In this document: positions 2,062-39,973 of the stretch, piece after piece
Position numbering within the stretch: position 1 is the first letter of the stretch
Layout: the number at the start of each line of letters is the position of its first letter
From: a virus
Strand: one strand, 5' to 3'
DNA: 47,376 bases
Virus record (IMG/VR): IMGVR_UViG_3300029577_000022
Span: 1-47,376 of that record
Position numbers and translations under genes: made by a program
Notes under the pieces: generated by a model
What the model was told of the DNA's origin: nothing
Database searches by the model: none
The model's input: the letters and a program-made list of their open reading frames with translations, nothing else

Positions 2062-3255
2062 TTGTCAGAAATTAGAAGAGACAACAAAGGTCGTAAGCTA
2101 GCGACTGGGGAGAGCCAGGATAAAGATGGAAGATACCGTTATAAATATAATGATTCATTTGGAAAGAGAAAATCAGTATATAGTTGGAGATTGACTGAAT
2201 CTGATCCATACCCAAAGGGGAAACGAAAAGATATTTCTCTTAGAGAAAAAGAGAAGGTTATTGAGAAAGCATTAAGTGATGCAGTTTCTACTAATGGTGG
2301 AGATATGACGGTATTAGAATTGGTACAGAGATATATTAGTCAAAAACGAGGTGTAAAACATAATACACAGGCGAATTATAACTTTGTTATCAATGTGATT
2401 AAAAAAGAAGATTTTGGAGCAAGGCGAATTGATACAATCAAATTATCAGATGCTAAAACATGGCTGATAAAGTTACAGGATGATGGTAGAGGATATAGTT
2501 CTATCCATTCTATTAGAGGTGTTGTAAGACCAGCTTTTCAGATGGCAGTTGATGATGATTTGATAAGAAAGAATCCGTTTGAGTTCCAGCTTGCAACGGT
2601 AGTTGTGAATGATAGTGTAACAAGAGAAGCTATTACAAGAAAACAGCAGAGAGAATTTTTGAGGTTTATTAAAGAGGATAAGCATTTCTGCAAATACTAT
2701 GATGGAATTTATATCTTATTTAATACTGGATTGCGTGTCTCTGAATTTGTCGGTTTGACAGCAAATGATATTGAATTTGACAAGCAGAGAATTAAGATTG
2801 ACCATCAATTACAAAGGACACGCAATATGGAATATGAGATATTAACACCTAAGACTGAAAAGGGTGAGAGATATGTTCCTATGAAAGAAGATGTTGCAGA
2901 TTGTTTTCGTAGGATTATACAGAATAGAAAGCATCCAAAGATTGAGCCTATGATAGATGGTTATAGTGGCTTTTTGTTCTTAGATAAGAATGATATGCCT
3001 ATGGTTGCTTTACATTGGGAAAAGTATTTCCAACATATCCGTGAGAAGTATAACAGTATTTACAAAGTACAAATGCCGTGTATTACACCTCATGTATGCA
3101 GACACACCTTCTGCTCTAATATGGCAAAGTCTGGTATGAACCCAAAAACATTACAATATATAATGGGACATTCAGATATAGGAGTTACCCTTAATACATA
3201 TACTCATTTACAGTTTGAGGATGCCTTAGTAGAGATGAAAAAGGTCGTGGGCTAA
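2062..3255 (+). CDS. int: Tyrosine integrase, Tn916-Int-like, with an N-terminal arm-binding domain
   Basis: The N-terminus MSEIRRDNKGRKLATGESQDKDGRYRYKY closely parallels the Tn916 Int N-terminus. The C-terminal catalytic region reads HVCRHTFCS...GHSDIGVTLNTYTH. TTG start with an AAGGAGAG ribosome-binding site. Confidence 0.9.
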   Translation: MSEIRRDNKGRKLATGESQDKDGRYRYKYNDSFGKRKSVYSWRLTESDPYPKGKRKDISLREKEKVIEKALSDAVSTNGGDMTVLELVQRYISQKRGVKHNTQANYNFVINVIKKEDFGARRIDTIKLSDAKTWLIKLQDDGRGYSSIHSIRGVVRPAFQMAVDDDLIRKNPFEFQLATVVVNDSVTREAITRKQQREFLRFIKEDKHFCKYYDGIYILFNTGLRVSEFVGLTANDIEFDKQRIKIDHQLQRTRNMEYEILTPKTEKGERYVPMKEDVADCFRRIIQNRKHPKIEPMIDGYSGFLFLDKNDMPMVALHWEKYFQHIREKYNSIYKVQMPCITPHVCRHTFCSNMAKSGMNPKTLQYIMGHSDIGVTLNTYTHLQFEDALVEMKKVVG

Positions 3256-3525
3256 AAGGTATGAAAATAGCCCAGAATTTAGCCCAAATGAAGGAAAAGT
3301 TATGCAAAGTTATTCCAAATTATGCTGAAAATGTGAACAAAAGCACTATCACAGAAATATTGCAGAATTGTTGTAAGTGCCGAAAATACAGTAAAATCAA
3401 GCGTTTAGAGAGGTTTTAGATATATGATAAAAATATTATTTGTTTGCCACGGCAGGAGACTAACTTCTTGTTAAAAGTGCTTTATTTACTAGGGTTTGAG
3501 CGATACAGCATTGGATTTTAGCCCA
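3248..3525. promoter_or_regulatory. Candidate attP arm-type sites: TAGCCCA at 3268, 3280 and 3519, plus an inverted copy at 3248
   Basis: The 7-mer recurs within extended similarity TTTAGCCCA..AAATGAA, in the ORF-free region directly after int. Confidence 0.4.
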
Positions 3526-3666
3526 TTTTTAGGACAAATGAACAGAGAGCATCGGTATGGAAAATAGAATATTAGGACATCTAAATAAGTCCCATATCAT
3601 TGTAGAAATATGATGGTATGAGGCTTATTTTAGTGCCTTAATTTGCATAGACACAGAAATACTCAC

Positions 3667-4365: not shown

Positions 4366-4659
4366 ATGAGATTACTTAAACAGGATGTAATAGACAAATT
4401 AGCTGAAAAGACAGGCTTATATAAAAAAGATGTACGAGCTGTATTAGATTCATTCCATGAATTAGTTTATGAAGAATTGGATGCAGATAATTCAATTCTT
4501 ATCACAAATCTTTTTAAGGTTGAGCCAATAACAGTTGATTCAAGAAAAAGATACAGTCCGTATGTTGATGATAATTACTACATTGAGAAAGAACATAAGA
4601 CAGTAAAAATCACACCAGCTTCAAATCTATTGGATAGCTTGAAGAAAGAGGAAGAGTAA
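4366..4659 (+). CDS. hup: HU/IHF-family DNA-binding protein
   Basis: 97 aa. KQDVIDKLAEKTGLYKKDVRAVLDSFHELVYEEL and the overall layout match the HU fold pattern. Strong ribosome-binding site. Confidence 0.75.
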   Translation: MRLLKQDVIDKLAEKTGLYKKDVRAVLDSFHELVYEELDADNSILITNLFKVEPITVDSRKRYSPYVDDNYYIEKEHKTVKITPASNLLDSLKKEEE

Positions 4660-5859: not shown

Positions 5860-6086
5860 TCGGCAGAAATACACCGATTCAAAAAATATGATGGATATTT
5901 CCCAACAGGCAGGAAGTAAAAGAAAGCCTGTATCAGAGATCAAGAATATCTATAGTGCGATTCTGCACAATTTCCAATAGTGAAAAATAGTGAAATTACG
6001 ACTGCTGCATTTAGCGGTTTATTAAGGGTGAACGAAATTTAGTTTACCTTTATTTCTTGACCTCTGATTTATAGCAAAGGAGGATC

Positions 6087-7952
6087 ATGTATAGTGAAAA
6101 TAAGATTAAATGTATGTACTTCAATAACCGATTCAAGGAGAAACCACAAGGAAAACAATGTGGGTGGGTACAGAAAAGTCTAACAGAGACAGATATTACA
6201 ATAGAAGAATTGGCAGATGCTTTGTGTCATGGAGCATCATTTAAGCCGGGAGTATTACAGGGCGGTATGAAAGCTGATAACTGGGTGCAGCAACAGTTAT
6301 TTGGCTTGGATTTTGATAATGGAATGTGCATAGAAGAAGCATATAACAAGGTCATTTCTCTTGGAATTGTACCATGTTTTATGTACACCACATTTTCACA
6401 CAAGGAAGAACATCATAAATTCCGCATGATATTCTGCAATGATACAGTTATTACAGATGGCAGTATCAGAGATAAATTACAAGCTACACTTATGGGTGCG
6501 GTGGGTGGAATTGATGAGGTATGTTTCAATAGAGATAGATTGTTTTTCGGTGGCAAGGGGAATGAGACATTATATCCATCTTATGACAGTAGAATCAATG
6601 CAAAATCAGTTATTGATAAATACTGGAAAGATGAGTATGAGCAATATATATCAAATGCACAGCCAAAATCAAAGAAGAAGCCTGCTGCAAAAAAGGAAAA
6701 AGCTGATACGGAGGTAAAACCCGTATATGAAAACTTAAATGTCAAAGCAATCAAGGAACATGATGTTGAATATTTGCGTACAGTATTAGCACATGAACCG
6801 ATTGAGTTTGATACAAAAAATGAATTTTGGGATTATATCTATTCGGAACTGGATATCGCAGAACTGATAGATATTGACGATCCGAGGTCTTTTTGCTGTA
6901 TTCTGCATGAAGATCATAACCCTTCTGCAAACATCTTTACTACGAAAAATGGAGTTCAAAAGTATAGATGTTGTTCTGAAAATCTTACTCTTAACATAAA
7001 ACAGTTGATTGAAATGTTGGGAGATTTCAAATCTGAATATAAAGCTATTCAATTCATAATGGATATTTATAATCTGTCTATAAAGGAATCTCAATGGAGC
7101 ATTGAACAGCGTGAAAACATAGACATGATGATAAGTAATATCACTCTGAATAAATTTCAAGAACTATGTCCACAGGCTGATAAAAATATCAAATATGCAA
7201 AGGACACATTTCTTATGATGCTGTCTATTGCACGAAACAATATTTATAGCGAGAAGTTTTCTAATGATGATGGAGAAATAATCTTTTACGTTACCAATAA
7301 AAAGTTGGCTGAATACATGGGAAAAGGTAATAGCCAGAAGAAGATTGACAAGATCAATAAGTATGTGAAAATGCTTATCTATCACGATTTAATACGGATA
7401 TTAGATAATGACCAGATACCAAAGGAATTATTGAAAAACGCATTAAAATATACGAATGGCAATAAGAATCGTGTCAATTTCTATGCTATTCCATCATGGG
7501 TAGTACAACAGTTGAAAACAATAGAAGATAACGGAATCCGTTGGAAAGATAAAGGTTATAGAATTGGCGGTGTATCGTTTGATATGTTCTATCGTTCTGA
7601 AGGTTTTGAGGTAGCCGCCTCATTATATCCCCAGTATAAGAAAAAGAAAAATGAATATGGTGAGATTGTAAACAGAACTACCACAAAGGCTAGTGATGAA
7701 TGTACATTGAAGATTTCAGAAGTGATTTTGCATTGTATTCAAAGAAAAGGATATTGTACCGAGAAAGAGGTTGTTTATATTCTTGGTAATGAGTATAGAT
7801 ACGAAGTCACAGAGACACAGATTAAGCGATGTTTAAATGAGATTATGGATTGTTATGGATTGAAGAAAGTCAAAGCTAATAAGGTATTAAAGGAACAATT
7901 TGATATAAAATCAGACGGCTATCCCTACATAATAATTGAAGATGAGATGTAA
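6087..7952 (+). CDS. Primase-polymerase (AEP-like N-terminus) with a CHC2-type zinc finger. Likely the element's replication protein.
   Basis: LFGLDFDN matches a DxD motif, TTFSHKEEHHKFRMIF an sxH-like motif, and RDRLFFGG is also present. CCILHEDHNPSANIF...YRCCS resembles a CHC2 finger. Confidence 0.6.
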   Translation: MYSENKIKCMYFNNRFKEKPQGKQCGWVQKSLTETDITIEELADALCHGASFKPGVLQGGMKADNWVQQQLFGLDFDNGMCIEEAYNKVISLGIVPCFMYTTFSHKEEHHKFRMIFCNDTVITDGSIRDKLQATLMGAVGGIDEVCFNRDRLFFGGKGNETLYPSYDSRINAKSVIDKYWKDEYEQYISNAQPKSKKKPAAKKEKADTEVKPVYENLNVKAIKEHDVEYLRTVLAHEPIEFDTKNEFWDYIYSELDIAELIDIDDPRSFCCILHEDHNPSANIFTTKNGVQKYRCCSENLTLNIKQLIEMLGDFKSEYKAIQFIMDIYNLSIKESQWSIEQRENIDMMISNITLNKFQELCPQADKNIKYAKDTFLMMLSIARNNIYSEKFSNDDGEIIFYVTNKKLAEYMGKGNSQKKIDKINKYVKMLIYHDLIRILDNDQIPKELLKNALKYTNGNKNRVNFYAIPSWVVQQLKTIEDNGIRWKDKGYRIGGVSFDMFYRSEGFEVAASLYPQYKKKKNEYGEIVNRTTTKASDECTLKISEVILHCIQRKGYCTEKEVVYILGNEYRYEVTETQIKRCLNEIMDCYGLKKVKANKVLKEQFDIKSDGYPYIIIEDEM

Positions 7953-8105: not shown

Positions 8106-9365
8106 ATGGATACAGCAAAAATATGTAAGAAATGTGGGAGAGAACTCCCAATAAATAAATTTGGAATAAACCATAATTATACAAGAAGTATGTGTAAAGA
8201 GTGTTTTAATGAAGGAATGCGAGAAAAGCGTTATCAACAAAGATTATCAGATGGCATAGAAATATATCATAAAGATAAGTCGATGAAGATACAGAGGAAA
8301 TATAAGAAACCATACCATTTTCAAATCTTGTATAGGTCGGAATCTGGTATTGATACTATTGCAAAAGATGAAGTGTTTGTGCGTTTATTTGACTATAAAT
8401 CTGTATGGACTTCTAATTATGGTAGGATAATTCAGAGATTGAATGATGGAACATACCAGCTTGTAAAAGGTGTATATTCAAGAGCCACAAAGGAATTGAC
8501 CTATACACTTGACAGGAATATTTATTTCAAATCTAAGAACAGATGGGGATATAGGAAAGAGAAGGTAACTGCCAGTGATCTTGTAATTCAGATGTTCGTT
8601 GTCAATTATGACATGAAAAATAATACAATGGTTTGGCATAAGAAGAATGATACAAAGGATAATTACTATAAGCATTTATTCCCAGTCACAGATAAACAAT
8701 ACAATGAGATTTTAAGCATATATGAACAGGACGGAACAATCACAGATAAGCAGATTATGGAGATTGTGAATGCGGTAGAGTTTAAACCCGATGATTGGAA
8801 ACCTTGGCATAATAAAAGAACTTATGAAGGTGTCGGTTATGTCGGTGCTGATACTTCAGATATTGATTATGAATCATACTCATTTGTAAAGTGGAAGAAT
8901 ATGATCCAGAGGTGCTATAGCGATGTTGTACATAAATTAAAACCTTATTACATGGATAAGGAAGTTTGTATTGAATGGCAGAACTACCAGAATTTCAAGA
9001 TATGGTTTGACGCACATTATATTCCTGGGACTAAGGTCGATTTAGACAAAGATTTACTCTATAAGGAAGGTAATATCTACAGTCCAGAAACGTGTGCATT
9101 TATGACGCATTTCTTGAATACAGTATTTGAGGATAGAGGAATTGAGAGCAACATCAAACAGAATGATGATGGTACATATTCAGTATCAATGATAGTTCTT
9201 AATAAGAAGATGGATATAGGTGTATTCGATTCAGAGGAAGAAGCGCATACTGGATTTATAGATGGCAAGATTGATTATATTTGTGACCTTGCAGAAAAGT
9301 GTAAGGACAAAGTACCAGATTATGTGTATGAAGGTATGCTGAATTATAAGATTGAAATTGACTAA
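8106..9365 (+). CDS. Homing-endonuclease-like protein: zinc ribbon + NUMOD4-like + HNH_3-like + AP2-like DNA-binding domain
   Basis: The motifs seen are CKKCGRELP...CKECF, WTSNYGRIIQ, VWHKKNDTKDNYYKHL and a C-terminal YSVSMIVLNKKMDIGVFDSEEEAHTGF. Confidence 0.6.
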   Translation: MDTAKICKKCGRELPINKFGINHNYTRSMCKECFNEGMREKRYQQRLSDGIEIYHKDKSMKIQRKYKKPYHFQILYRSESGIDTIAKDEVFVRLFDYKSVWTSNYGRIIQRLNDGTYQLVKGVYSRATKELTYTLDRNIYFKSKNRWGYRKEKVTASDLVIQMFVVNYDMKNNTMVWHKKNDTKDNYYKHLFPVTDKQYNEILSIYEQDGTITDKQIMEIVNAVEFKPDDWKPWHNKRTYEGVGYVGADTSDIDYESYSFVKWKNMIQRCYSDVVHKLKPYYMDKEVCIEWQNYQNFKIWFDAHYIPGTKVDLDKDLLYKEGNIYSPETCAFMTHFLNTVFEDRGIESNIKQNDDGTYSVSMIVLNKKMDIGVFDSEEEAHTGFIDGKIDYICDLAEKCKDKVPDYVYEGMLNYKIEID

Positions 9366-9431
9366 TAATCGGAGGTGGCAGATTTAACCCTGCTGCCTCT
9401 TTGCAGTTTATAAAGGAGAAAAAAAGGAATT

Positions 9432-9950
9432 ATGGCTTATATAAAGGTCAAAGATAGAAGAAGATTTGAACGAAAAGAGTTCAGAGATTACATAAAGTTA
9501 TCAGATGATAAAGTGCTTGACACAAAAAAGAATAATATAGATTTACTTGGTGATGATGAAATATTTGTACAGTTGGAAGATACACAGCATTATTGGATTT
9601 CAAGTCATGGCAGACTTACAAACAATATGAGGAAAGATAAAACATTCTTCTTTCATAAAATGGATAGCGGTGATCCCAAAAGAAGTGTGCATTGGACGAT
9701 TGTAACCTATGATATTGACGGAACTGCTTTACATGAAGAGACAAGTCCAGAAATTCTTGTAGCAAAGTATTTCTTAATCAAGCCGACAGGATGCAATAAG
9801 ATATGGCATATAGACGAAAATATGAATAATAATTACTACAAGAATCTGATTTATGTATCTGCGGAAGAGTATGAGGTGTTGAGAAAGCACGTTAAAACAG
9901 TTGCAGAGATATTGGCAGAGAGCAGGAATATTATGATTACAATACGATAA
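9432..9950 (+). CDS. NUMOD4/HNH_3-like protein. It looks like the N-terminal half of a split paralog of 8106..9365.
   Basis: WISSHGRLTNN and IWHIDENMNNNYYKNL are present. See the finding on the frameshift. Confidence 0.55.
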   Translation: MAYIKVKDRRRFERKEFRDYIKLSDDKVLDTKKNNIDLLGDDEIFVQLEDTQHYWISSHGRLTNNMRKDKTFFFHKMDSGDPKRSVHWTIVTYDIDGTALHEETSPEILVAKYFLIKPTGCNKIWHIDENMNNNYYKNLIYVSAEEYEVLRKHVKTVAEILAESRNIMITIR

Positions 9951-10012
9951 AGGGCAATCCAGCTTATAAAATTTATGAGGGGATTTATGCAAGATGTTAT
10001 GGCGGTAGTTCG

Positions 10013-10513
10013 TTGTATGTGAATCAATGCTACGATGATGCTTATATGTGTGACGAGTGGAAGAATAGCAGAGATTCTTTTGCTGAATGGTACTCTGCTA
10101 ACTATTATGAATGTGACGGAGAACGCATGGCAGTTGATAAGGATTTATTATGTCGTGGCAATAAAGAATATGCAGCAGATAAGTGTTGTATATTGCCGGA
10201 GACTATCAATTCTGCCTTGGCAAGTGCTACAAAGAGAAGAAGTCGTTATAAATCAGCAAAGGTTTATGCTATCGGTGTTGATTATGACAAAGCAAGGGAT
10301 AAGTTCTTTGCAAGGATCACACCATTCGGGCATGACAAACAAGTTAAGCTGCATTATTGGGACACAGAGGAAGAAGCGTTTCAAGAATATAAGTTATTCA
10401 AGGAATCGGAGATTAGGGTATTGGCATTGAGATACAGAGATAAGATACCAGACAGACTGTTTGATGCATTGATTAAATATGAGGTGCGTCCTTATAGTCC
10501 GTATGAGAGTTAA
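10013..10513 (+). CDS. AP2-like DNA-binding protein. It looks like the C-terminal half of the split paralog, and its frame is open from 9896.
   Basis: CDEWKNSRDSFAEWY and AIGVDYDKARDKFFARITPFGHDKQVKLHYWDTEEEAFQEY parallel the C-terminus of 8106..9365. The upstream in-frame codons read PAYKIYEGIYARCY. Confidence 0.55.
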   Translation: MYVNQCYDDAYMCDEWKNSRDSFAEWYSANYYECDGERMAVDKDLLCRGNKEYAADKCCILPETINSALASATKRRSRYKSAKVYAIGVDYDKARDKFFARITPFGHDKQVKLHYWDTEEEAFQEYKLFKESEIRVLALRYRDKIPDRLFDALIKYEVRPYSPYES

Positions 10514-10517
10514 GATT

Positions 10518-10562
10518 AGGGCATATTGGATATTAGTTTATCTGATATGCCTTATTTTTTAC
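10518..10562 (+). terminator. Rho-independent terminator
   Basis: Stem ggcatat/atatgcc followed by ttatttttt. Confidence 0.55.
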
Positions 10563-10579
10563 CTTTTTTGTATGATGTA

Positions 10580-10588
10580 TGGTATAAT
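10580..10588 (+). promoter_or_regulatory. Extended -10 promoter element TGgTATAAT
   Basis: The sequence tatggtataat lies about 90 nt upstream of the 10676 start. Confidence 0.5.
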
Positions 10589-10675
10589 TACACAATAAAG
10601 GGAATTTGGTTTTTGTGTGTGGTTTTATACTTGGAATAATTGGATTGCTGTAGAGAAAAAGGAGTAGTTGCATAT

Positions 10676-11353
10676 ATGGCTAAGAATTGTTTGTGTTGTG
10701 GTAAAAATATTGGATTACTTACAGTACGCATTCCTTTATTAGAAAATGAAGAGTTGGTTATATGCTCTGATTGCTTTGAAAAAATGCCTTCAGTGCTTAA
10801 CGATTTATACCAGAAGAGAATACATCCGACAAAATCAGAACTGCTTACAATAAAAGAAGAAATAATTGAGCAGCTTAATTTAGGATGTTATAACAAAGAT
10901 GTAATCAATGTGGTTACAAAGTATTTAGATAATAAAATTTCAAAAGCAAAAGATCCAGAGGTTAGTGAAGATGGTGCAATATTAAAGAAATGCCCAATAT
11001 GCAACAAGAATGTGAATTATGATGTAGAAGTGTGTTCGGGTTGTGGTTATTCTTTTTCATCTGGGTATGAGTTTGTAAATAATGAGATTGCCAATATATA
11101 CAATCAGAGAATGGAACAATATAAAAGGAATCCATTTTATGAATATGATTATATTGTTGTCCATAATAAATCAGATGGATCTACAGATAAAGAGAAGATA
11201 GAAAAAATCATCCGTAATCATGCAATGCAAGGATGGAGATTGATTACTATGTATTCAAATGAGATTGGTAAAAATGCAATAGCCGGTGTAAATGCAACTA
11301 TGTGTGAAGATATTATGGTCTTTGAAAGATGTATAAAAGGTGAAAATGTATGA
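10676..11353 (+). CDS. Zinc-ribbon protein with a DUF4177-like C-terminus
   Basis: CLCCGK...CSDCF and CPICNK...CSGCG are present. The C-terminus reads YEYDYIVVHNK...MQGWRLITMYSNE. The ATG follows AAAAGGAG. Confidence 0.55.
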   Translation: MAKNCLCCGKNIGLLTVRIPLLENEELVICSDCFEKMPSVLNDLYQKRIHPTKSELLTIKEEIIEQLNLGCYNKDVINVVTKYLDNKISKAKDPEVSEDGAILKKCPICNKNVNYDVEVCSGCGYSFSSGYEFVNNEIANIYNQRMEQYKRNPFYEYDYIVVHNKSDGSTDKEKIEKIIRNHAMQGWRLITMYSNEIGKNAIAGVNATMCEDIMVFERCIKGENV

Positions 11354-11799
11354 GTAAATATTGTCCCAAGTGCAAGATGAATTTCTCCGATGAATTTGAT
11401 GAATGCATATATTGTGGAGAAGATTTAAAAGATGGGATTATTGAAACAGAAGATACAGTGTCAGAAAAATCAATTAGTAAGCTATCTGATGCTGAAATAC
11501 TAGAAAAATACTCTGATTATAGAAAAAGAATTGAGAAACAAACTGGTAGACAAATGACGGATTTTGAATTTTTGTCTGGTATCATGGAAGCTAGAAGAGA
11601 TAGTTTAAATCATCAAGCAGAAACATATTTTGCAAGCAACAAAGAAGCAAATGTTAGTAAACCGAAATGCTCTACATGCCAAAGCGAAAATATTCAAAAA
11701 ATTTCTACTATGACAAAAGCAGGGAGTGTAGCATTATGGGGAATATTTTCGCAAAAGATTAAGAAGCAATGGCATTGCAATTCGTGTGGAAGTGAATAG
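11350..11799 (+). CDS. Zinc-ribbon protein
   Basis: CPKCKM...CIYCG and CSTCQS...CNSCG are present. It overlaps the upstream gene by 4 nt (ATGA). Confidence 0.55.
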   Translation: MSKYCPKCKMNFSDEFDECIYCGEDLKDGIIETEDTVSEKSISKLSDAEILEKYSDYRKRIEKQTGRQMTDFEFLSGIMEARRDSLNHQAETYFASNKEANVSKPKCSTCQSENIQKISTMTKAGSVALWGIFSQKIKKQWHCNSCGSE

Positions 11800-11817
11800 T
11801 AGAGGAGGTGTCAGTGA

Positions 11818-12195
11818 ATGAAAAATAAAAAGGCAATCATTATATCATTTTTTGTGATGACCTTAATCTTATTTCTATGTATTTTGATTATGGTAATATC
11901 CAATAAAAATGCTAAGTTCCAGAGTAAAGATGAAATGTCAGAAGTGATAAATGGTATATGGAGAACGGGTGCTTCTGAATATGATTTTGTTTTCACCATT
12001 GATAACGACAGTGCATATTTGAGCAATGGAGATAAAGTCGATGATCCATCTAAAATAGTGTTAGTTCCAGAAAAGGGATATTTTTATTATGAATATAAAG
12101 GTGATACGAAGAAGTCCAGATATAATGTTGTTTACGAGGATGGAGAGTATTTGATTAAGGATAAATATTGGACGTTTAAGAAAACGGAAGAGTAA
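11818..12195 (+). CDS. Membrane-anchored or secreted small protein
   Basis: N-terminal hydrophobic segment AIIISFFVMTLILFLCILIMVI. GGAGG ribosome-binding site. Confidence 0.6.
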   Translation: MKNKKAIIISFFVMTLILFLCILIMVISNKNAKFQSKDEMSEVINGIWRTGASEYDFVFTIDNDSAYLSNGDKVDDPSKIVLVPEKGYFYYEYKGDTKKSRYNVVYEDGEYLIKDKYWTFKKTEE

Positions 12196-12920
12196 TTTTA
12201 TTGGTACGTCTGCTGCTGTTAGGTACTTAATAGGACATGGTTTAAGAGTACCCCTCTCCCTGTTATATGTTATTATCCTTTGCAAAAATAAGTGATTTTG
12301 AGGGTAAATTGGCTTTGTAATTGCGTAGCTGATAAAGTTTACCTATGATGTATTTTGAAGCGGATTTGAGTTGATTTTTATTGATTTATTCAAAGGATAT
12401 GGGGTAAGTTCTCCGTGGGGACTAGGGAAGAATGAATCGGAATTTCAGATTCCGAAAAAGCGGTAATCCACAGTGGTACAGCGAAATTTTTCGCTCGTTA
12501 TCTGAAACAGATAGTGTCGGTTTAGAGGTGTTGCATATTTGCAATAGTTGAAGGGAACTAAATTTCGTTCCCCCATGAGATACCGCCAGAAGTGGTGAAA
12601 ACTTTAAATGAAGCTTGTGTCCAAATGGACGCATCTTGAAGAATAAAAATTTTTCGCATACAAGTGTGCGAAAAATTTTATCTTTTAAGTGGAACTGTTT
12701 CACTTAGGGGGATTTTCCCTTTAGGTGAGAATAGAAAATCAGATTTCCAGAATGAGAATGTGAAAATATCGTAGAGGTAAAATTTTCAAGTCACTGTATG
12801 GAATAACCAACTACAAGGCGGTGGAGAAAAACAATTCCCTTTTTTGGTTTTTGATACCCCGGACTATGCAATCCCTACCAAACTAGTAGGACATAAGAAC
12901 ATTAAAAAATATCAATAGAG
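12196..12920. ncRNA. Candidate large structured RNA region. Class and strand are unknown.
   Basis: About 740 bp between convergent genes has no credible ORF. It holds at least 7 compact hairpins, including cggaat..attccg, gcgaaa..ttcgc, tatctg..cagata, ttgca..tgcaa, gggaac..gttccc and gtgtcc..ggacgc. Possible long-range pairing gcggta/taccgc. The region looks more GC-rich than its flanks. Confidence 0.35.
12641..12686. terminator. Bidirectional intrinsic terminator (13-bp stem) inside the ORF-free region
   Basis: aaaatttttcgca / tgcgaaaaatttt with an 8-nt loop. There are T-rich tracts on both sides when each strand is read. Confidence 0.6.
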
Positions 12921-12960
12921 CATATAAAAAAATATGGTGTAACTTTATCGGTTACACCAT
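12921..12960 (-). terminator. Rho-independent terminator for the minus-strand gene 12989..13297
   Basis: Stem atggtgtaac/gttacaccat. On the minus strand it is followed by attttttta. Confidence 0.7.
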
Positions 12961-12988
12961 TGTATTATAATTATATTATGTTATTGCT

Positions 12989-13297
12989 TTATTCTTCTAA
13001 ATCTGTCAAGTGTGGCAAGTCTGAAATAATATCATTGTAACTTTTTCCGTTTGGATTGTCTAACTGTTTTCCTATGTCTCCTAGTTCAAAACAAATATAA
13101 TCATATTTATCATAGTACCAACCGCACACATCATCAAGCGGTATACAATTATCAAGTGATATATAATTTTGTGGGATAACTTCAATCTCTTTTATAACTG
13201 TTTCTGTTTTGGCTTGTGTAGTTCCTACCATGTAAGAGCATACCGACATAGTAACCATAATTGCGATAATTCCGATTTTTTTTATTGATTTCTTCAT
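12989..13297 (-). CDS. Small secreted protein or lipoprotein candidate
   Basis: Signal-peptide-like MKKSIKKIGIIAIMVTMSVCSYMVG. AAAGGAG ribosome-binding site. Confidence 0.65.
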   Translation of the reverse strand: MKKSIKKIGIIAIMVTMSVCSYMVGTTQAKTETVIKEIEVIPQNYISLDNCIPLDDVCGWYYDKYDYICFELGDIGKQLDNPNGKSYNDIISDLPHLTDLEE

Positions 13298-13325
13298 ATT
13301 GTTTTTATCTCCTTTTCTATGTATC

Positions 13326-13362
13326 GGGTGCAGGCTTGTAAGTCATGCACCCTTATTTTTTT
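13326..13362 (+). terminator. Plus-strand-oriented intrinsic terminator between two minus-strand genes
   Basis: Stem gggtgca/tgcaccc is followed by ttattttttt on the + strand only. Confidence 0.45.
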
Positions 13363-13873
13363 ACGCTTCTTTCAGTCTCTTTGTTGCTTCTGTCTGTACT
13401 TCTGTACTTCCGTAATAGTTCCGTATATCATCCATAGATAATTTTTTCTTGCTTCTCTTTCTGAATGCTTCTGTATGAAAATACCACTTCTTTTTCTCTC
13501 TTGCCCATTTAAACCCTAGAGCCTTTAAGCTGTCTTTGTGTTCGTATGTGTTACCATCAACCCATATCCAACAACCGACTATTTCAATATTGATATTTTC
13601 CATTGTAACAATATGCTGTAATACTTCCCTTAATTTTTCATCTTCTGAAAAATCATACTTCATATTATTATAATCTGTTTTGTTGTCGGTGGTGTCGCTT
13701 GCGTTGTGTTCGTGTCTGTCTTTTAATGTTTTGAATAATGTATCATATTCTACATTTATTTCTTTTGTGGCTTCCGTTGATCCGTTTGGGTTGTCTGGGT
13801 GGTACTTCTTTAATAGCTCTTTGTACTGTTTTCTTAATTCTTCTAATGTTTCTACATTCTTAAAATATTTCAT
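13361..13873 (-). CDS. J-domain (DnaJ-like) protein
   Basis: LRKQYKELLKKYHPDNPNGS contains the HPD motif. Strong AAAGGAGG ribosome-binding site. Confidence 0.8.
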   Translation of the reverse strand: MKYFKNVETLEELRKQYKELLKKYHPDNPNGSTEATKEINVEYDTLFKTLKDRHEHNASDTTDNKTDYNNMKYDFSEDEKLREVLQHIVTMENINIEIVGCWIWVDGNTYEHKDSLKALGFKWAREKKKWYFHTEAFRKRSKKKLSMDDIRNYYGSTEVQTEATKRLKEA

Positions 13874-14650: not shown

Positions 14651-14780
14651 AAACGTGGTACGAGGATAAGAAGAAAGCAGACAAATGAGCACAACGAGGC
14701 GAACGGTCAAGCCGTGGTATTCAATTACAACTTGCCTATCGGCAGTAATGCCACATTATAACAAGAAAGAAGGTGAGACA

Positions 14781-15359
14781 ATGACAAGTGCAGATTTAAC
14801 AGTATTAGAGCCATATTGTAAAGATAATATGCGACTGCTAAAAAAGTTATCAAAGTCAATCTTTTTGAGGCTTAACGAGCCATTGACAGAAGCAGACTAT
14901 GACGATTTTTACAGCATTGCAAATATGACATTGTGGCAGTGTTACAACTCTTATAGCACCGATAAAGGAGCAAGTTTTAATACTTTTCTTTGTGATTGCT
15001 TAAAGAAAAAATTTAAGACAGAGATAAGAGACAGACACAGAGAAAAACGAGTTATCAATCAGTTTACAACCTCATTAGATGCAACTAATGACAGCGAGGA
15101 AGAATGTAGCATACTGGATTTTATACCATCCGATTTTGACACATTTGAGGAAGTAACCAAAAACAACAACGAACAATTTCAAGACAAGGTACAACAGTAC
15201 ATTTCAAAACTTTCTAATCAGCAGGTAAATATATTAAACCTTTTGATTGATGGGTACACACCTAAAGACATACGGCAGATTTTAGAAATTTCATCAACTG
15301 AATATGCTGAAAATATGAAGATTATGAGAAGTTTTGAAAATGTAAAGATTTTATTTTAG
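14781..15359 (+). CDS. Sigma-70-family (ECF-like / conjugative-transposon type) RNA polymerase sigma factor
   Basis: Region-2-like DYDDFYSIANMTLWQCYNSY...FNTFLCDCLKKKFKTEIRDRHREKR and region-4 HTH LSNQQVNILNLLIDGYTPKDIRQILEIS. ATG 14781 follows GAAGGTGAG. Confidence 0.7.
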   Translation: MTSADLTVLEPYCKDNMRLLKKLSKSIFLRLNEPLTEADYDDFYSIANMTLWQCYNSYSTDKGASFNTFLCDCLKKKFKTEIRDRHREKRVINQFTTSLDATNDSEEECSILDFIPSDFDTFEEVTKNNNEQFQDKVQQYISKLSNQQVNILNLLIDGYTPKDIRQILEISSTEYAENMKIMRSFENVKILF

Positions 15360-19840: not shown

Positions 19841-20494
19841 ATGAAAAATGAAGTATGGGGATATGCAAGAGTTTCTACAAAAGAACAGAATCTTGCACGA
19901 CAAATTGAACAGTTAAAAGAGTTTGGAATATCTGAGAGAAATATTAAGTGTGACAAAATAAGCGGAAAGACATTTAATCGAATGGAATACAACGCATTAG
20001 TTGGAACAGAAACAACAGCACCAACTTTAAGAGAGGGAGATTTGCTTGTTATTGTCAGTCTTGATAGGTTGGGTAGAAACTATACGGAAATCAAGGAACA
20101 GTGGAACTATATTATCAATGTTATTGGAGCAGATATTGTTGTGTTGGATATGCCATTACTCGACACAAGGCAATCTGGTGATAATCTTGATAAAAGATTT
20201 ATTGCTGACCTGGTATTACAGATTTTGTCTTATGTGGCACAAAAGGAACTTGAAAACACAAGACGTAGACAAAAACAGGGAATGGATGTTATGCCAGTAA
20301 TCAATGGAAAGAAAACTTCTTTAAAGACAGGCAGACCAACAGGCAGACCAAACGCACAGTTTCCCGATAATTGGAAAGATTACTATGAAAAATGGAGACT
20401 AGGAGAAATGACAGCAACAAAGTGTATGGAAATACTGAATTTGAAAAGGTCAACATTTTATAAGCTGGTTAAGATTTATGAAAAGGATCTGTGA
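19841..20494 (+). CDS. Serine recombinase (resolvase/invertase family)
   Basis: VWGYARVSTKEQNLARQ contains the catalytic Ser motif, and there is a C-terminal HTH (RSTFYKLV). Confidence 0.85.
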   Translation: MKNEVWGYARVSTKEQNLARQIEQLKEFGISERNIKCDKISGKTFNRMEYNALVGTETTAPTLREGDLLVIVSLDRLGRNYTEIKEQWNYIINVIGADIVVLDMPLLDTRQSGDNLDKRFIADLVLQILSYVAQKELENTRRRQKQGMDVMPVINGKKTSLKTGRPTGRPNAQFPDNWKDYYEKWRLGEMTATKCMEILNLKRSTFYKLVKIYEKDL

Positions 20495-22118: not shown

Positions 22119-22133
22119 ATAAGGAGGTACAAG

Positions 22134-22346
22134 ATGAGCATAAAAATTGAATACGACTATGACATAAACCAGGTATTTATCAGCAACAATAATAAATCAA
22201 TTCCAATAGACAGGACAGAGGTAGCAAGAATTGAGACTATTCTGGAAGCATTGGAAATTCCATACACTGAAAAGTTGGGTAAGGTCTTTCTATTTGATAA
22301 GGAAATAGCCGATGAAGATAGGCAGACAATGTTAAAGGCTGGTTAG
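22134..22346 (+). CDS. Hypothetical protein
   Basis: 70-aa ORF with an AAGGAGG ribosome-binding site. Confidence 0.55.
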   Translation: MSIKIEYDYDINQVFISNNNKSIPIDRTEVARIETILEALEIPYTEKLGKVFLFDKEIADEDRQTMLKAG

Positions 22347-22384
22347 CATCATAGCATTATAATAAGGAAGAAATAGGTTATATT

Positions 22385-22543
22385 ATGATAGATACAAATA
22401 TTGAATCATTAGCAATCAAAGCGGAAATTAAACAGAGACTTAGAAATGAGATGGAGAATAGTATATCAGAGGATGATATGAAATTCGTTCTAAAAACATT
22501 TGACGATGTATCAAGCCGATTCAGATTTTCCAAGGAAAAGTAG
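22385..22543 (+). CDS. Small hypothetical protein (52 aa, below the track cutoff)
   Basis: The sequence reads MIDTNIESLAIKAEIKQRLRNEMENSISEDDMKFVLKTFDDVSSRFRFSKEK. The antisense track ORF 22378..22560 is judged spurious. Confidence 0.4.
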   Translation: MIDTNIESLAIKAEIKQRLRNEMENSISEDDMKFVLKTFDDVSSRFRFSKEK

Positions 22544-22740
22544 ATAGAAAAAATCGGCAAGGTATGTTATACTCATTAGGTATTAAGGGCGTGATGAACC
22601 CTTGATATACATTTTTTGATCATAGGATTACCTATAGATTGAAATTGTTTTGTTGTTGAAAAGTCATGGCTGTAATAAGTCATGGCTTTTCTGTTTATGT
22701 AGAAAGAATTGTATTTGTGGAAATTCTGCAATCTGTTATA

Positions 22741-22806
22741 ATAGGTATTACATAGAAATATGAAAAATAAGATTTGCAAAGGAGATATATGTAATACATA
22801 TAAGCA
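22741..22806 (+). promoter_or_regulatory. Operator-like boxes B1 (ATAGGTATTACATA) and B2 (GTAATACATATAAGCA) flanking promoter-like site S7
   Basis: B1 recurs exactly at 23384. B2 matches 23388..23403 at 15 of 16 positions. Confidence 0.55.
22763..22790 (+). promoter_or_regulatory. Element-specific promoter-like motif, site S7 (AAAAAT-N12-GGAGATATAT)
   Basis: Matches the bipartite consensus. It lies 68 nt upstream of the 22858 start. Confidence 0.45.
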
Positions 22807-23957: not shown

Positions 23958-24230
23958 TTGAAAGTCATTAGTTATTTGATACTTAGTTGGTTATATAGAA
24001 CTGATGCAAAAAGCAAAATTATAGCAGCCACAAGAAAAATGATACTTGATGGACTTGCAGAAGAAGGAACAAGTTATTGTGATAAGACCATTTATAACAA
24101 CCTTAGAAATCTGATACAAGGTGGGTATGTAAAAAATGGAATGCCAGTAGGTAATACATATACATATTACATTACATCTAAAGGTATGAATTGGTTAAAA
24201 GAAATGGAAGAGGAAGAAACGGAGGAATAA
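23958..24230 (+). CDS. Winged-helix DNA-binding protein, TubR-like paralog (copy 2)
   Basis: TIYNNLRNLIQGGYVKNG...TYYITSKG parallels copy 1. The TTG start lies 7 nt after GGAGGT, and ATG 23943 is an alternative. Confidence 0.5.
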   Translation: MKVISYLILSWLYRTDAKSKIIAATRKMILDGLAEEGTSYCDKTIYNNLRNLIQGGYVKNGMPVGNTYTYYITSKGMNWLKEMEEEETEE

Positions 24231-24235
24231 TTATT

Positions 24236-25339
24236 ATGAACAAAAAAATTAACGCAGGATTAAAAATTACAGGCATTGGATGTGGTCAGTGCGGAACACA
24301 GATTATTGCAGAAATCGAAAGAGCAGTAAATCTTCTTGATGGTGATAAGTCAAATCTTTCATTTATTGGAATTAACACAAGTACAGAAGATTTAGCATCT
24401 GTTAGCTTATCTCACAAGATTCATATCAATAATTCTAAGGGTGCTGCTTGCGATAGGGATAAGAGTACAGAAGCATTGGCAGAAGGCATTGATGAAATTT
24501 TAGAAGAATTACAGTCTTACATTATTGAGGATTCAATTATTTTTATTGCATTTTCATGTGGTGGAGGAACAGGATCGGCTATTGCACCTATTCTTAGTGG
24601 AATATTAAAGGAAATGGGATATTCGGTTGGTATGATTCCTGTATTGCCAGCAGATACAGAACCATTAAAGGTAAGAGATAATGCAAGATTGACATTTAAT
24701 GAGATTGATGAATTAAAGCCAGAAATGGGAAGTATTTTTATCCTTGACAATAATGCAAGCGACAAAATTACTGTAAATAAAGTGTTCGCTTCATTATTTA
24801 CAGGTATTCTTTGTATCAATAATAAATCCCAGGATGGAAATATGGATTTGGCAGAAATTGAAGCTTGCTTAAAGTGTCCGTCATTCTCTGTCATTACAAA
24901 AACCAATGCAACAAAGGGAACGACTGCAAATATCATTGATATTTTAAATAAGGATAACAATATTTTTGCAAAGAGAGAGGACAAGACTGTTACGATTATG
25001 GGTATTTCTGAAGCTGTATCAGCAAAGGAAAGTAAGATTGATATTATTCAGTTGCGTAAAGAGGTAGGAACAGCACCAACAGAATTTCATGGTTATCTGT
25101 CTGAATCAGAAGAAAATGTAATTATTCTTAGTGGTTTAACAATGCCATACAGTAGATTGGATTCAATGACAGATGCTATTGAGAAAGAAGCTGTGAATGT
25201 TCAAAACTCTATGAAAGCATTAACAGAAGTAAGAACTGCAAAATCATTAGATATATTTGGACAGAAGGCAGAGCCAGTTGTAGCACCAAAGAAGTCAAAT
25301 AGATTAGATGCACTAAAAGCAAGAAGAATCAGCAAGTAA
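24236..25339 (+). CDS. tubZ: Tubulin/FtsZ-superfamily GTPase, TubZ/PhuZ-like
   Basis: T1-like GIGCGQCGTQI and the tubulin signature SCGGGTGSAIAP are present. 367 aa. ATG follows GGAGGA. Confidence 0.75.
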   Translation: MNKKINAGLKITGIGCGQCGTQIIAEIERAVNLLDGDKSNLSFIGINTSTEDLASVSLSHKIHINNSKGAACDRDKSTEALAEGIDEILEELQSYIIEDSIIFIAFSCGGGTGSAIAPILSGILKEMGYSVGMIPVLPADTEPLKVRDNARLTFNEIDELKPEMGSIFILDNNASDKITVNKVFASLFTGILCINNKSQDGNMDLAEIEACLKCPSFSVITKTNATKGTTANIIDILNKDNNIFAKREDKTVTIMGISEAVSAKESKIDIIQLRKEVGTAPTEFHGYLSESEENVIILSGLTMPYSRLDSMTDAIEKEAVNVQNSMKALTEVRTAKSLDIFGQKAEPVVAPKKSNRLDALKARRISK

Positions 25340-34496: not shown

Positions 34497-34518
34497 TACC
34501 ATTTAGTGCTAAGTCATA

Positions 34519-34538
34519 TGCGTCCATTTGGACGCAAT
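34519..34538 (+). terminator. Hairpin gcgtcc-attt-ggacgc after clpX
   Basis: 6-bp GC-rich stem. The 16-mer atgcgtccatttggac also occurs inverted at 12617..12632. Confidence 0.4.
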
Positions 34539-34588
34539 TGGTAATTTACTGACTACGAAATCGTGGCAAGTTAAGAAAGGAATGAGAT

Positions 34589-35539
34589 ATGTCGTTAAAG
34601 CAAGAATGTATTGATATGATAAATTTGATAATAAAGCCATTACAAGATGATGCAACATATTACACATTGGAAGAAGATGTATTTGTGGATATATGTGGAA
34701 AGACAGGCGAAGATATTACATATACATTATGTGAAGATTGTGAAAATTGCAATAAAGACTGTAAATATAAGAATGAAAACATAAAAGTTGATATATCCTT
34801 TTGTGATTATGCTACAGATTGCATACGAAATTATGTTTTTGGGAAAAATGCAGTTGATTGTAAAGGTGTTAGTGTAATAAGAAATCGAAAACAACTTATG
34901 GAAGAAATGTTCTCATTGAAGAATGAGCTGGAAACATATAAAAACTGGTATGCAGAATTTGGAGAGCGTTACAATGAATATTTGAAGTATGCAAAACAAT
35001 TTGCAGAAGATATTAAAGAAGAATATCTGTTTTTTGGAATGATTCAGACGGAAATATTACCAATAGTTTTTCATACAAATCATGCTTATTATGATGGAAA
35101 AATCAATTATAGTACATTAGGAAATCTTCATATAGCAGAAAAGCAGAATGTTATCAATGTTTTTTGTTGTATGGAAAATGAAGAAGAAACGAAACGTACA
35201 ATTAGACATGAGGTGTTACATTACTTGCTTTATATTGCAGGTTTAAAATATCAAGATGATAAAGCAATCTTCCATTATTTATGTGGTAAATATGATGCCT
35301 ATGCTTATAAGAAAATGGATGCTACAGAACAAGAATTATACAATCGACTAATTAATGGGATAGAAATGTTAGATAGTATATCAAAAGGACAGAAGGAAAT
35401 AGAAGATAATTACAATTCTAATTATATATGTATGCTCTTAGCGGTAAGCACAGATGAAAATGATCCTATATATGGTGCACTTTGTAAGAATGGTAAAGAA
35501 ATATTACAACTATTTGATTTGAAAAAGAAGGTAGGTTAG
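34589..35539 (+). CDS. SprT-like / HExxH zinc metallopeptidase candidate with a Cys-rich N-terminus
   Basis: RTIRHEVLHYLLYIAGLKYQDDKAIFHYLCGKY contains the HExxH motif. The N-terminus reads CEDCENCNKDCKY. Confidence 0.5.
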   Translation: MSLKQECIDMINLIIKPLQDDATYYTLEEDVFVDICGKTGEDITYTLCEDCENCNKDCKYKNENIKVDISFCDYATDCIRNYVFGKNAVDCKGVSVIRNRKQLMEEMFSLKNELETYKNWYAEFGERYNEYLKYAKQFAEDIKEEYLFFGMIQTEILPIVFHTNHAYYDGKINYSTLGNLHIAEKQNVINVFCCMENEEETKRTIRHEVLHYLLYIAGLKYQDDKAIFHYLCGKYDAYAYKKMDATEQELYNRLINGIEMLDSISKGQKEIEDNYNSNYICMLLAVSTDENDPIYGALCKNGKEILQLFDLKKKVG

Positions 35540-35563: not shown

Positions 35564-36262
35564 ATGAATACATTTACAGTAACTACAGGAAATAAGAAAG
35601 AAACAGAACTAAAGGAATTTACAAGGCTGTTTGCATTACATGATATGTGGTGCAGACAGTATTACAATACTGTGACAAGCATATTTGGAAAGTACAGAAA
35701 AATTGATGATTGGTCACAGGATGAACTTATGAAAGCCGCTCTATGCGGTGTAAAGTATATGAATTCTGTGATTGAAATTGAGGCTGTAACTCATAGGGTG
35801 GATAATACATATCAGACACCGTTTGAAGCAAAGCAAACAGCCTTTAAACTGATAGATGCCTTATTTGGTATTATCGGTCGTATCAAACTGAAAAATCTGA
35901 TTAAGATATTTCCGATAGATAAAATCTACGATGGCGATAAATATGAATGCAAGGATTACTTTTTCACAATGGATGTTCTGAAGGAAAAAGGATTGGACAA
36001 TGCGGTTGGTCGTGATGGTGTATTCGATCTTATGTGGGATTATGAGAACAGAGATTTGAGAGAGTTTACAGTATTCTATATGAGCTGTATGAGTGCGATG
36101 TATCAGAGTCAAACTGGTGTTAGTTTTGCTGAAAAATTTTGTGAGGACAATTGGATTGGTACATATCATGTGGATCGTGAAAATGGCATCATAGTTAATA
36201 ATCAGACTGGAAAAATTGCAAAATTGAGCAATAAGCCCTCATTTATGCAGATTGTGAAGTAA
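35564..36262 (+). CDS. Hypothetical protein
   Basis: 232-aa ORF with a GAAGGAG ribosome-binding site. Confidence 0.55.
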   Translation: MNTFTVTTGNKKETELKEFTRLFALHDMWCRQYYNTVTSIFGKYRKIDDWSQDELMKAALCGVKYMNSVIEIEAVTHRVDNTYQTPFEAKQTAFKLIDALFGIIGRIKLKNLIKIFPIDKIYDGDKYECKDYFFTMDVLKEKGLDNAVGRDGVFDLMWDYENRDLREFTVFYMSCMSAMYQSQTGVSFAEKFCEDNWIGTYHVDRENGIIVNNQTGKIAKLSNKPSFMQIVK

Positions 36263-39398: not shown

Positions 39399-39422
39399 CA
39401 AAAAACAATGCTATTTTTTGTT

Positions 39423-39450
39423 AAAAATTCAAAAAAGTGTAGGGAAAATA
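39423..39450 (+). promoter_or_regulatory. Element-specific promoter-like motif, site S6, a degenerate member (AAAAAT-N13-GGGAAAATA)
   Basis: Matches the bipartite consensus. It shares TCAAAAAAGT and AAGCATTTTCAATA with the region upstream of 36597. Confidence 0.4.
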
Positions 39451-39921
39451 AGCATTTTCAATATCTCCTTATGGAAGAAAGTACTGCGCATGAAAAGACC
39501 GTAGGCTGAGTAGTGCGTGGGAAACTTCCAACAACAATTTAATCAATAGCTCCTATAAATCACTTCTATAGGATTCACTATTATTTCACTAAAGTAAGGT
39601 AGGGTGTGATAGCTCTGCCATTCTCCGATAATATCACCCTATGGGTGTTTATTATATGTTTTGAATATCATATTATTGGCAGGATTTAATTGTCCTGCCA
39701 GACAAGGGTAATAATGGTTTCTGAGGTGGGCAGTAACTTTTATTATAAGCGTTGATGTGCTGGCTCAAACACGGCATGTTAGCATAAAGTACACACGTTG
39801 TATTTCAAAACAATAAACAATGATTAAGTGGACAGACTGATTCAAACTAGGTCTGTCCTCCTAATTGTACGAATTTAAAATATTACCAGTGTGATTGATT
39901 TTTGCACTGGTCTATTTTTTT
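39451..39921 (+). ncRNA. Hairpin-rich non-coding transcript or leader candidate ending in an intrinsic terminator
   Basis: Stems seen are tggaag..cttcca, cctata..tatagg, agggtg..caccct, ggcagga..tcctgcc and ggacagac..gtctgtcc. The last hairpin is accagtg..cactggt followed by ctattttttt. Confidence 0.35.
39885..39921 (+). terminator. Rho-independent terminator upstream of the HTH-TMP gene pair
   Basis: 7-8-bp stem followed by a T7 run. Confidence 0.65.
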
Positions 39922-39973
39922 ATATAAAAAATTATATATTGAATAAGAAAATATATAGGAAGGAGCAGTATGA

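Follow-up and report, generated by a model that had tools for sequence, protein, structure and literature searches.

The antisense RNAs of immunity and copy control, among them the P4 CI RNA, the P1/P7 c4 RNA, the attenuation RNAs of pT181 and pIP501 and ColE1 RNA I, are encoded in or beside their targets, and RNA and target co-vary between specificities. AgvB and AsxR are reportedly anti-small RNAs of enterohaemorrhagic E. coli prophages that occupy moron positions. The PeSL (promoter-stem-loop) cassettes of T4-type phages and the REP/BIME mosaics of bacteria are repeated stem-loop modules that lie at boundaries. To our knowledge, almost no phage regulatory RNAs have been described for the Lachnospiraceae, bacteria that are abundant in the human gut. 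The element considered here lies in the IMG/VR virus record IMGVR_UViG_3300029577_000022, all 47,376 nucleotides (nt) of which were analyzed and are referred to as the window. The first-pass annotation had proposed that an island of roughly 740 base pairs (bp), beginning at 12196 between convergent genes, encodes a large structured RNA. The results presented here reveal that the structured part of this island consists of short, individually exchangeable hairpins in an optional cassette of ~360 bp. The cassette is a plausible and credible candidate for a new phage non-coding RNA of unusual modular build, which is found in a narrow group of Lachnospiraceae prophages and belongs to no Rfam 15 family. 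That it is the RNA counterpart of a phage moron gene, with transcription from a promoter in the surrounding framework to the terminator-like hairpin T1, is the reading favored here, although the case appears to be close to evenly balanced. A catalogue said to hold 10,006 candidate viral structured RNAs is available for comparison (PMC10690425).

Like AgvB and AsxR, the cassette is a non-coding unit with an intrinsic terminator that occupies a variable slot in the genome of a temperate phage and is carried by only some of the relatives. Unlike them, it is associated with a Lachnospiraceae host, the predicted RNA is ~3-5 times longer and has many short hairpins, there is no similarity in sequence or Rfam family, and the unit has been read from sequence alone. 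As expected for a non-coding RNA in a moron slot, no reading frame is conserved and the slot varies between syntenic phages. Of the promoter and terminator that such a unit should own, the terminator T1 is clear; the promoter hexamers were recognized by eye and are absent from the output of a promoter scan. The resemblance to the antisense immunity and copy-control RNAs lies in stem-loops that are complementary to leader hairpins (H7 to 6026-6049 and H9 to 34519-34536), one target being terminator-like. Here, however, the proposed targets lie at distances of 6 and 22 kb, the RNA and its targets do not co-vary, and one cassette type carries same-sense copies. With the PeSL cassettes and REP/BIME mosaics the locus shares short intergenic palindromes in both orientations, mosaic clusters, modular gene shuffling and a recurrent hairpin (H0) at cassette junctions. 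It differs from them in that no hairpin of the cassette recurs more than once elsewhere in the 47 kb, there is no consensus unit repeated many times per genome, and about ten hairpins are joined in one 330-nt unit.

The first-pass annotation had pointed to large ornate RNAs of the ROOL and GOLLD kind. The cassette is likewise associated with phages and prophages of Firmicutes, non-coding and highly structured, but it matches no covariance model, is only ~330 nt long as a predicted RNA, and has interchangeable hairpins in place of a conserved multi-domain architecture, so this comparison is not upheld. The Rfam search that had been recommended as a check found no family. None of the Rfam 15 covariance models (ROOL, GOLLD, HEARO/omega, raiA and others) matched the window at the gathering score. 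When 11700-13400 was searched at an expect value (E) <= 10, the best match was antisense_SR1, with 24.8 bits against a cut-off of 45 and mainly to the terminator part, and nothing meaningful was obtained. Four loci with cassette types B-E gave no match inside the cassette at E <= 0.5, and ARAGORN found no tRNA or tmRNA in the window. Resemblances to a T-box, a tracrRNA or a mimic of Cas13/Cas12a repeats were also considered and rejected; the short look-alikes (gtggtacagcg, ggggacta) vary among relatives and have no support from Rfam.

An optional cassette within a conserved framework

The window was aligned with 13 related loci taken from phage contigs in IMG/VR, 14 sequences in all; loci from metagenomes, genomes and assemblies were added later, and individual loci are given here as L numbers. 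The island of 740 bp has two layers, a framework (12196-12401 and 12763-12990) and a cassette (approximately 12402-12762). The framework amounts to ~430 bp and is kept in all related Lachnospiraceae prophages. The slot within it is bordered by caaaggatatg(a)gggtaa and aaaatatcg. In the window it contains the following element.

12402-12762 (~360 bp), + strand: A-type cassette, the optional cargo, defined by a precise indel difference in the alignments and by nhmmer

The slot is empty in L009, L017/L100, L104, L105 and L106, and is reduced to a 66-nt remnant in L099 and L142 (Jutongia hominis). It can also hold a gene. In L096 a + strand gene for a 179-amino acid (aa) unknown protein, with its own ribosome-binding site, begins directly after the framework; in L109 a + strand gene of the Cro/C1-type helix-turn-helix family starts at the same point, and L187 has a small - strand gene. 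The cassette does not resemble a miniature inverted-repeat transposable element, since no convincing terminal inverted repeats or target-site duplication were seen and the cassette ends pair only by means of many G·U pairs.

Scans of the collected sequences yielded ~25 distinct cassettes in all, with no further type among 46 Lachnospiraceae genome loci. Type A is represented by ~14 distinct sequence variants. The other cassettes are type B (L011), an A/B hybrid (L082), type C (L107) and type E (L216, ~560 nt). A D-type cassette (L022) is located in another phage at another site, directly downstream of a 53-aa gene whose product reads by eye as ribbon-helix-helix-like. Beside this D-type cassette, the stretch L022 11760-12180 (- strand) is A/T-rich, with ATTGCAC(A/G)A repeated three times and the motif TACCCTAAAAT several times; by eye it is reminiscent of a replication origin or of an operator array. 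The cassette types have in common the 5' hairpins H1 and H2, the blocks S1, S3 and S5, the hairpin T1 and the hairpin H10, and between these they carry differing series of short hairpins.

The G+C content of 12400-12599 is 0.44, compared to 0.30-0.34 in the flanks, as the first-pass annotation had surmised. The region is also unusually structured. The fold of 12380-12700 (+ strand) has a z-score of -5.5, and none of 100 shuffled sequences was as stable. With the terminator excluded, 12402-12640 still gives z = -3.3 (+) and -3.8 (-). In a 200-nt scan of the whole + strand (472 windows, with noisy z-scores due to the use of 12 shuffles per window), 12401-12600, 12501-12700 and 12601-12800 accounted for three of the four lowest free energies. 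The cassette region is thus the best-folding part of the + strand, with a lower free energy than any other part of the window. The departure from chance is as large for types B and C (z = -4.8 and -4.4) as for type A (-3.3/-5.5), whereas the fold of the framework is not unusual (z = -1.6 and +0.25). The extra structure hence comes with the cargo and is not shared by the non-coding DNA of this locus in general. A structured RNA candidate is still favored, but not a single RNA of 740 bp, as ~430 bp of the island are framework with an ordinary fold. Between phage contigs, 12402-12685 is 92-99.6% identical, the flanking framework 79-97% and the downstream genes 83-100%. The high identity of the cassette fits either constraint or recent spread by recombination.

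Hairpins and conserved blocks

The elements of the A-type cassette are as follows, with loops in square brackets.

12408-12422, + strand: H1, guucuc[cgu]ggggac, 5' hairpin common to types A, B, C and E and to short-slot loci
12437-12455, + strand: H2, ucggaau[uucag]auuccga, invariant in 14 A-type sequences
12460-12479, + strand: S1/H3 block, gcgguaauccacagugguac, conserved in sequence and found in types A, C and D
12480-12495, + strand: H4, agcgaa[auuu]uucgcu, with one compensatory pair (A-U in 5 sequences, C-G in 9)
12498-12514, + strand: H5, ttatctg/cagatag, overlapping S3; stem broken in 4 of 14 A-type sequences, with three pairs lost
12504-12527, + strand: S3 block, gaaacagauagugucgguuuagag, conserved in types A, B, D and E
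within 12504-12527, + strand: S3 string, CAGATAGTGTYGGTTT
12530-12545, + strand: H6, guugca[uauu]ugcaau, one pair broken in 7 of 14 sequences
12553-12572, + strand: H7, gggaac[uaaauuuc]guuccc
12584-12597, + strand: H8, cgcca[gaag]uggug, one pair alternating between G-C and G·U; a broken pair in two sequences
12616-12633, + strand: H9, ugugucc[aaau]ggacgca, with one G·U pair; two variable pairs switch only between Watson-Crick and + strand G·U
12646-12686 (hairpin 12646-12679), bidirectional form: T1, intrinsic terminator-like hairpin with a U-rich tail, 15 pairs on + and 13 on -
12687-12705, + strand: H10, at the cassette 3' end, with a double change from G·U to U-A in L078 and type B
12706-12724, + strand: S5 block, ggggauuuucccuuuagg, at the cassette 3' end, conserved in types A to E
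within 12706-12724, + strand: S5 string, ATTTTCCCTTTAGG

The short stems on which the original proposal was based (H2, H4, H5, H6, H7 and H9) are all present where it had placed them, and the bidirectional terminator it described corresponds to T1. The 20-nt core of T1 is found unaltered in 12 IMG/VR contigs with types A, B and C, whereas a single position differs in type E. The hairpins are modular. Type B retains the H2 stem with another loop (ggugg), and at the position of H6 it has an unrelated 10-bp hairpin. By eye, variants of H1 keep pairing by G·U or by a double change (guuuuu..gggggac in L099 and guuuc..gaaac in L187). S3 is kept while the H5 stem that overlaps it is broken, indicating that in this part of the cassette the sequence is conserved and not the hairpin.

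Among the 14 distinct A-type sequences (mean column identity 96%), 96.8% of cells pair, a value that is biased upward because the structure was taken from the window. H4 and H10 each have one compensatory double transversion. Variable columns are fewer in hairpins, stems and loops taken together (25/204), than in linkers (29/124; Fisher p = 0.013), and are least frequent in the loops (3/42). A predicted long-range helix of 12520-12527 with 12602-12609 varies between G-C and G·U only. The long-range pairing of gcggta (12460) with taccgc (12580) suggested by the first-pass annotation is possible inasmuch as both hexamers exist, but the two changes seen in it, in L079 and L001, are uncompensated, and none is compensated. 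The structural evidence is accordingly moderate for individual hairpins and poor for a global fold.

Strand and predicted RNA

The strand, which could not be assigned at first, can now be given as +. All wobble pairs in the hairpins of the window are G·U on the + strand, and the single-side changes in H9 and H8, like the H1 variants, keep pairing on that strand only. The fold of 12402-12640 is better by 12 kcal/mol on the + strand (-72.2 kcal/mol) than on the - strand (-60.4). Together with the orientation of cargo genes, promoter-like hexamers and the position of T1, these features favor an RNA from the + strand. The parts of the framework that would drive and begin such an RNA are listed below; both promoter candidates were identified by eye and from the alignments.

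12309-12314 (TTGGCT) and 12330-12338 (TGaTAAAGT), 18-nt spacer, + strand: promoter candidate 2
12321-12326 (-35, TTGCGT) and 12344-12349 (-10, TATGAT), 17-nt spacer, + strand: promoter candidate 1
12357-12401, + strand: framework leader, in all relatives including the empty-slot loci, ending at the insertion point after caaaggatatg(a)gggtaa

The hexamers of the candidate promoters are conserved in the alignment, with a variable spacer. In L008 a 13-nt deletion in the spacer places TTGGCT 16 nt from TATGGT and thus brings the upstream -35 into register. Because the + strand cargo gene of L096 has no room for a promoter of its own, the framework most likely supplies it. Transcription of the cassette would start near 12357 from the promoter-like elements of the framework and would stop at the intrinsic terminator 12646-12679, giving a + strand RNA of ~330 nt with a 3' end near 12684. 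The RNA would thus probably cover ~12357-12684, where transcription and both ends are predicted; this segment has a fold with z = -4.2. It would be composed of about ten short hairpins (5-7 bp, with A/U-rich loops) linked by the conserved blocks S1, S3 and S5.

A protein-coding role for 12196-12988 was also considered. This stretch is non-coding. The one open reading frame (ORF) called in the cassette, of 93 aa at 12422-12703 (- strand), had been judged not credible at the outset. It contains stops or 1- or 2-nt frameshifting indels in most relatives, its sole match among 5.8 billion proteins is an ORF call that overlaps a related cassette, and tblastx of 12402-12762 against the collected loci returned homologous cassettes only; for these reasons it is not a gene. 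Small + strand peptides starting at ATG 12399 and 12432 were rejected, as the length and frame of the ORF differ among variants in the alignment, examined by eye. A decayed or cryptic gene, either the 93-aa ORF or a small + strand peptide, is consequently a scarcely credible explanation, even though - strand stop-free runs of 78-99 codons occur in all A-type variants. The test for a decayed gene proposed by the first-pass annotation was in this sense negative, in protein comparison, tblastx and frame conservation alike.

Hairpins shared with gene leaders

Two hairpins of the cassette are mirrored elsewhere in the window. The reverse complement of 12556-12570, within H7, recurs exactly at 6030-6044 (15 nt, E = 0.009), and that of 12619-12634, at H9, recurs exactly at 34518-34533 (16 nt, E = 0.002). 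Both matches land on hairpins in gene leaders.

6026-6058, + strand: leader hairpin with a U tract, terminator-like, inverted copy of H7, ~40 nt before the start codon of gene 6087-7952
34519-34536 and 34553-34566, + strand: two leader hairpins before gene 34589-35539, the former an inverted copy of H9, the latter with a same-sense copy in the C-type cassette

The H7 match extends to 18 nt in phage contig 180016 (L198). H4 with its flanks has an inverted copy (21 nt, 1 mismatch) upstream of the homologue of gene 6087 in L192, and the leader of L194 is nearly the same. A palindrome like T1 occurs in the same leader region in L196 and L200. The cassettes and the gene leaders thus draw on common modules, the orientation of which is not consistently antisense.

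The position of the hairpin in the 6087 leader (L191-L201, ~1440-1475) is occupied by two or three unrelated hairpins between the conserved flanks TTTATTAAGG ... ATTTCTTGACC. Since unrelated hairpins interchange at this fixed position, the leader hairpin behaves as an element of which only the structure matters, such as a terminator. It looks like an attenuator or terminator of this kind that is swapped by recombination. Gene 6087 matches only distant hypothetical proteins at <30% identity, leaving no annotated relative to rely on. In the 92-nt gap before gene 34589-35539 (34497-34588) there are three small hairpins. Relatives have other hairpins in this gap (CACTCCAATTGGAGTG and CCGTCCAAATGGACGG), and the orientation of the AAAT/ATTT loop differs from phage to phage.

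Among conceivable modes of action, the one preferred here is that the cassette RNA acts in trans by pairing with leader hairpins of phage operons; it is put forward with low confidence and is by itself unlikely. H7 and H9 would pair with the leader hairpins of genes 6087-7952 and 34589-35539 in the same phage, and H4 with the leader of the 6087 homologue of a related phage. The RNA could thereby open or mask leader hairpins, one of which is terminator-like, much as the antisense RNAs of phage immunity (P4 CI, P1 c4) and of plasmid copy control act on their targets. In an extended version, which we regard as improbable, the RNA would be a library of hairpins, each an antisense or decoy of a leader hairpin of an essential operon in the same phage or a close relative. 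H7, H4 and T1 would then be directed against three hairpin variants of 6087 homologues, and H9 against the 34589 leader. The RNA of a prophage would control these leaders in trans, and the swapping of hairpins would set the specificity of immunity or exclusion among competing Lachnospiraceae phages. The cassette would then be comparable to the immunity RNAs of P4 and P1, but would consist of RNA only and have several targets. An unrestricted scan of duplex energies between the RNA and the window gave unrealistically long duplexes; it was uninformative and was not used.

Evaluation of alternative explanations

Several observations weigh against a non-coding RNA of conserved function and against its proposed action in trans. 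Compensatory change, which the first-pass annotation had named as a check, exists but is scarce. In type A, changes on both sides are confined to 2 of 81 pairs, the A-U to C-G pair of H4 and a pair in T1; some of the sequences have disrupted H5 or H6 stems, and no long-range helix or global fold is kept across types A, B, C and E. A consensus promoter scan reported neither of the two candidates that had been read by eye. The C-type cassette contains same-sense, not antisense, copies of two 34589-leader hairpins (20 nt in L188 and 15 nt in the window). Nor does the leader change in step with the cassette, as six further A-type contigs with a readable 6087 leader keep H7 and have an unrelated leader hairpin, and in contig 186499 the loop of the 34589-leader hairpin is the same as that of H9 and so not complementary to it. 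Finally, only ~25 distinct sequences are available, from a narrow group of phages. In the main rival explanation the cassette is recombination debris, an assembly of terminator and boundary hairpins that were copied, in either orientation, from intergenic sites elsewhere in this phage family into a hot spot of exchange; transcribed or not, it would have a function limited at most to stopping convergent transcription. Such debris would be PeSL- or BIME-like in behavior, not in copy number. Hairpins are indeed exchanged singly or in blocks between types (hybrids L082 and L078), the same modules stand in gene leaders in both orientations, the hairpin of the 6087 leader is itself swapped between phages, and an empty slot is tolerated; the decay of H5 and H6, the weak covariation and the want of a conserved global fold point the same way. 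Short palindromes can also arise or be "corrected" by template switching, which could mimic the few compensatory changes seen. However, debris does not readily account for a cassette that is better conserved than the surrounding framework, for hairpin columns, above all loops, that vary less than linkers, or for the retention of S1, S3 and S5 across otherwise unrelated types and in the second genomic context of type D. In addition, the adjacent non-coding framework has no excess structure, and a build-up of hairpins is therefore not general to non-coding DNA here. Debris is for now considered somewhat unlikely.

The same hairpins could serve in cis, as an insulator or a stabilizing 3' structure that stops or protects transcripts or blocks read-through and has no role in trans. 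The cassette is located between convergent transcription units, both T1 and the hairpin at 12934-12960 are bidirectional and terminator-like, and 11700-13400 contains six terminator-like sites where 0.9 are expected. Relatives with an empty slot nevertheless need no more than the 12934-12960 hairpin, just one of the ten hairpins that precede T1 has a U tract, and the conservation of S1, S3 and S5 would go unexplained. A purely cis-acting structure is distinctly improbable. An element that works as DNA, its palindromes being protein sites, accessories of a replication origin or single-strand initiation hairpins, is less probable again. It would suit the many near-perfect palindromes with AAAT/ATTT/AATT centers in both orientations, and the D-type cassette does adjoin, by eye, the A/T-rich origin-like stretch with three ATTGCAC repeats. 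Yet some ten different palindromes would require as many binding proteins, no iterons were seen by eye in this stretch, and the element is dispensable, as the slot can be empty. The wobbles, moreover, are all G·T on one strand, indicating single-strand folding, and G·T is weak in DNA. The RNA counterpart of a moron gene continues to be the explanation preferred here. If real, the RNA would add an unclassified non-coding RNA family to the temperate phages of the Lachnospiraceae. Its build would be unusual, with exchangeable short hairpins between conserved ends. Some of these hairpins are mirrored in gene leaders of the same phage, and this mirroring supplies a concrete and testable hypothesis, the control of leader and terminator hairpins by RNA in trans. 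If the cassette is debris only, it would still be a clear example of a cargo slot in a mosaic phage that gathers hairpin modules, and a caution against inferring an ornate RNA from hairpin density alone.

The framework and its junctions

The remaining elements of the framework lie on either side of those already described.

12222-12252, + strand: H0 hairpin (ggtacttaa...ttaagagtacc), unique in the window, 0 matches expected by chance
12763-12933, + strand: right-hand framework, conserved with or without a cassette, fold z = +0.25
12934-12960, both strands: bidirectional terminator-like hairpin that ends the convergent - strand gene 12989-13297

The H0 pattern was found in 56 of 219 fetched loci, once per locus. 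H0 probably ends the upstream + strand operon and is probably a recurring boundary between modules; besides being a terminator, it may mark a boundary for recombination. In L009, H0-type hairpins (4405-4435 and ~5320) lie on either side of an inserted gene block of ~870 bp, and in L216 two H0 copies are adjacent (3524-3600). Many A-type loci have, to the right of the cassette, an extra insert of ~55-60 nt that is absent from the window (~4925-5000 in L001, and the same place in L002, L005, L006 and L007); it amounts to ~85 nt when flanks that differ from the window are counted. The insert contains two direct repeats, ACTTCCGT(A/T), and could be a protein-binding site.

Genomic setting

The window represents a temperate phage with a tyrosine integrase (2062-3255), a serine invertase (19841-20494) and an HNH endonuclease. 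It also encodes a TubZ/PhuZ-like protein (24191-25339) and a sigma factor of its own (14685-15359). The genes that adjoin the non-coding stretch are the following.

11818-12195, + strand: last gene of a long + strand block, to the left of the non-coding stretch
12989-13297 and 13361-13873, - strand: two convergent genes to the right, the latter DnaJ-like

Prophages of Lachnospiraceae (for example in Jutongia hominis, Parablautia, Roseburia and Petralouisia) contain relatives of the neighboring DnaJ-domain gene, as do IMG/VR contigs that derive in part from human-gut samples. BLASTN of the region against 50,697 phage records gave no match. To the left, 8106-11799 is a run of + strand genes for zinc-ribbon/DZR-like proteins with weak matches to AP2, DUF4177 and DUF4428. 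A comparison of these genes with known defense systems gave no match; they are probably accessory genes with an unassigned role.

After the cassette, the next most structured parts of the + strand are 22501-22700 (z ~ -5.8) and 35601-35900 (z ~ -6.7), each scored with 12 shuffles; 22119-22747 is without an ORF of at least 80 aa. The stretch that includes the cassette had been described as the longest in the window without a credible ORF. This is roughly so; 39399-40284 also has no ORF of at least 60 aa, but a small helix-turn-helix-like ORF with a ribosome-binding site (MTQEELRAMLNKRL...) can be seen there by eye. This second ORF-poor stretch (39399-40303) contains several strong hairpins (z = -3.8) and is located ahead of a giant gene. 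The latter is one open frame of >2,357 codons (40304-47376), which runs past the end of the window, is missing from the ORF list because it is cut there, and probably encodes a giant phage protein.

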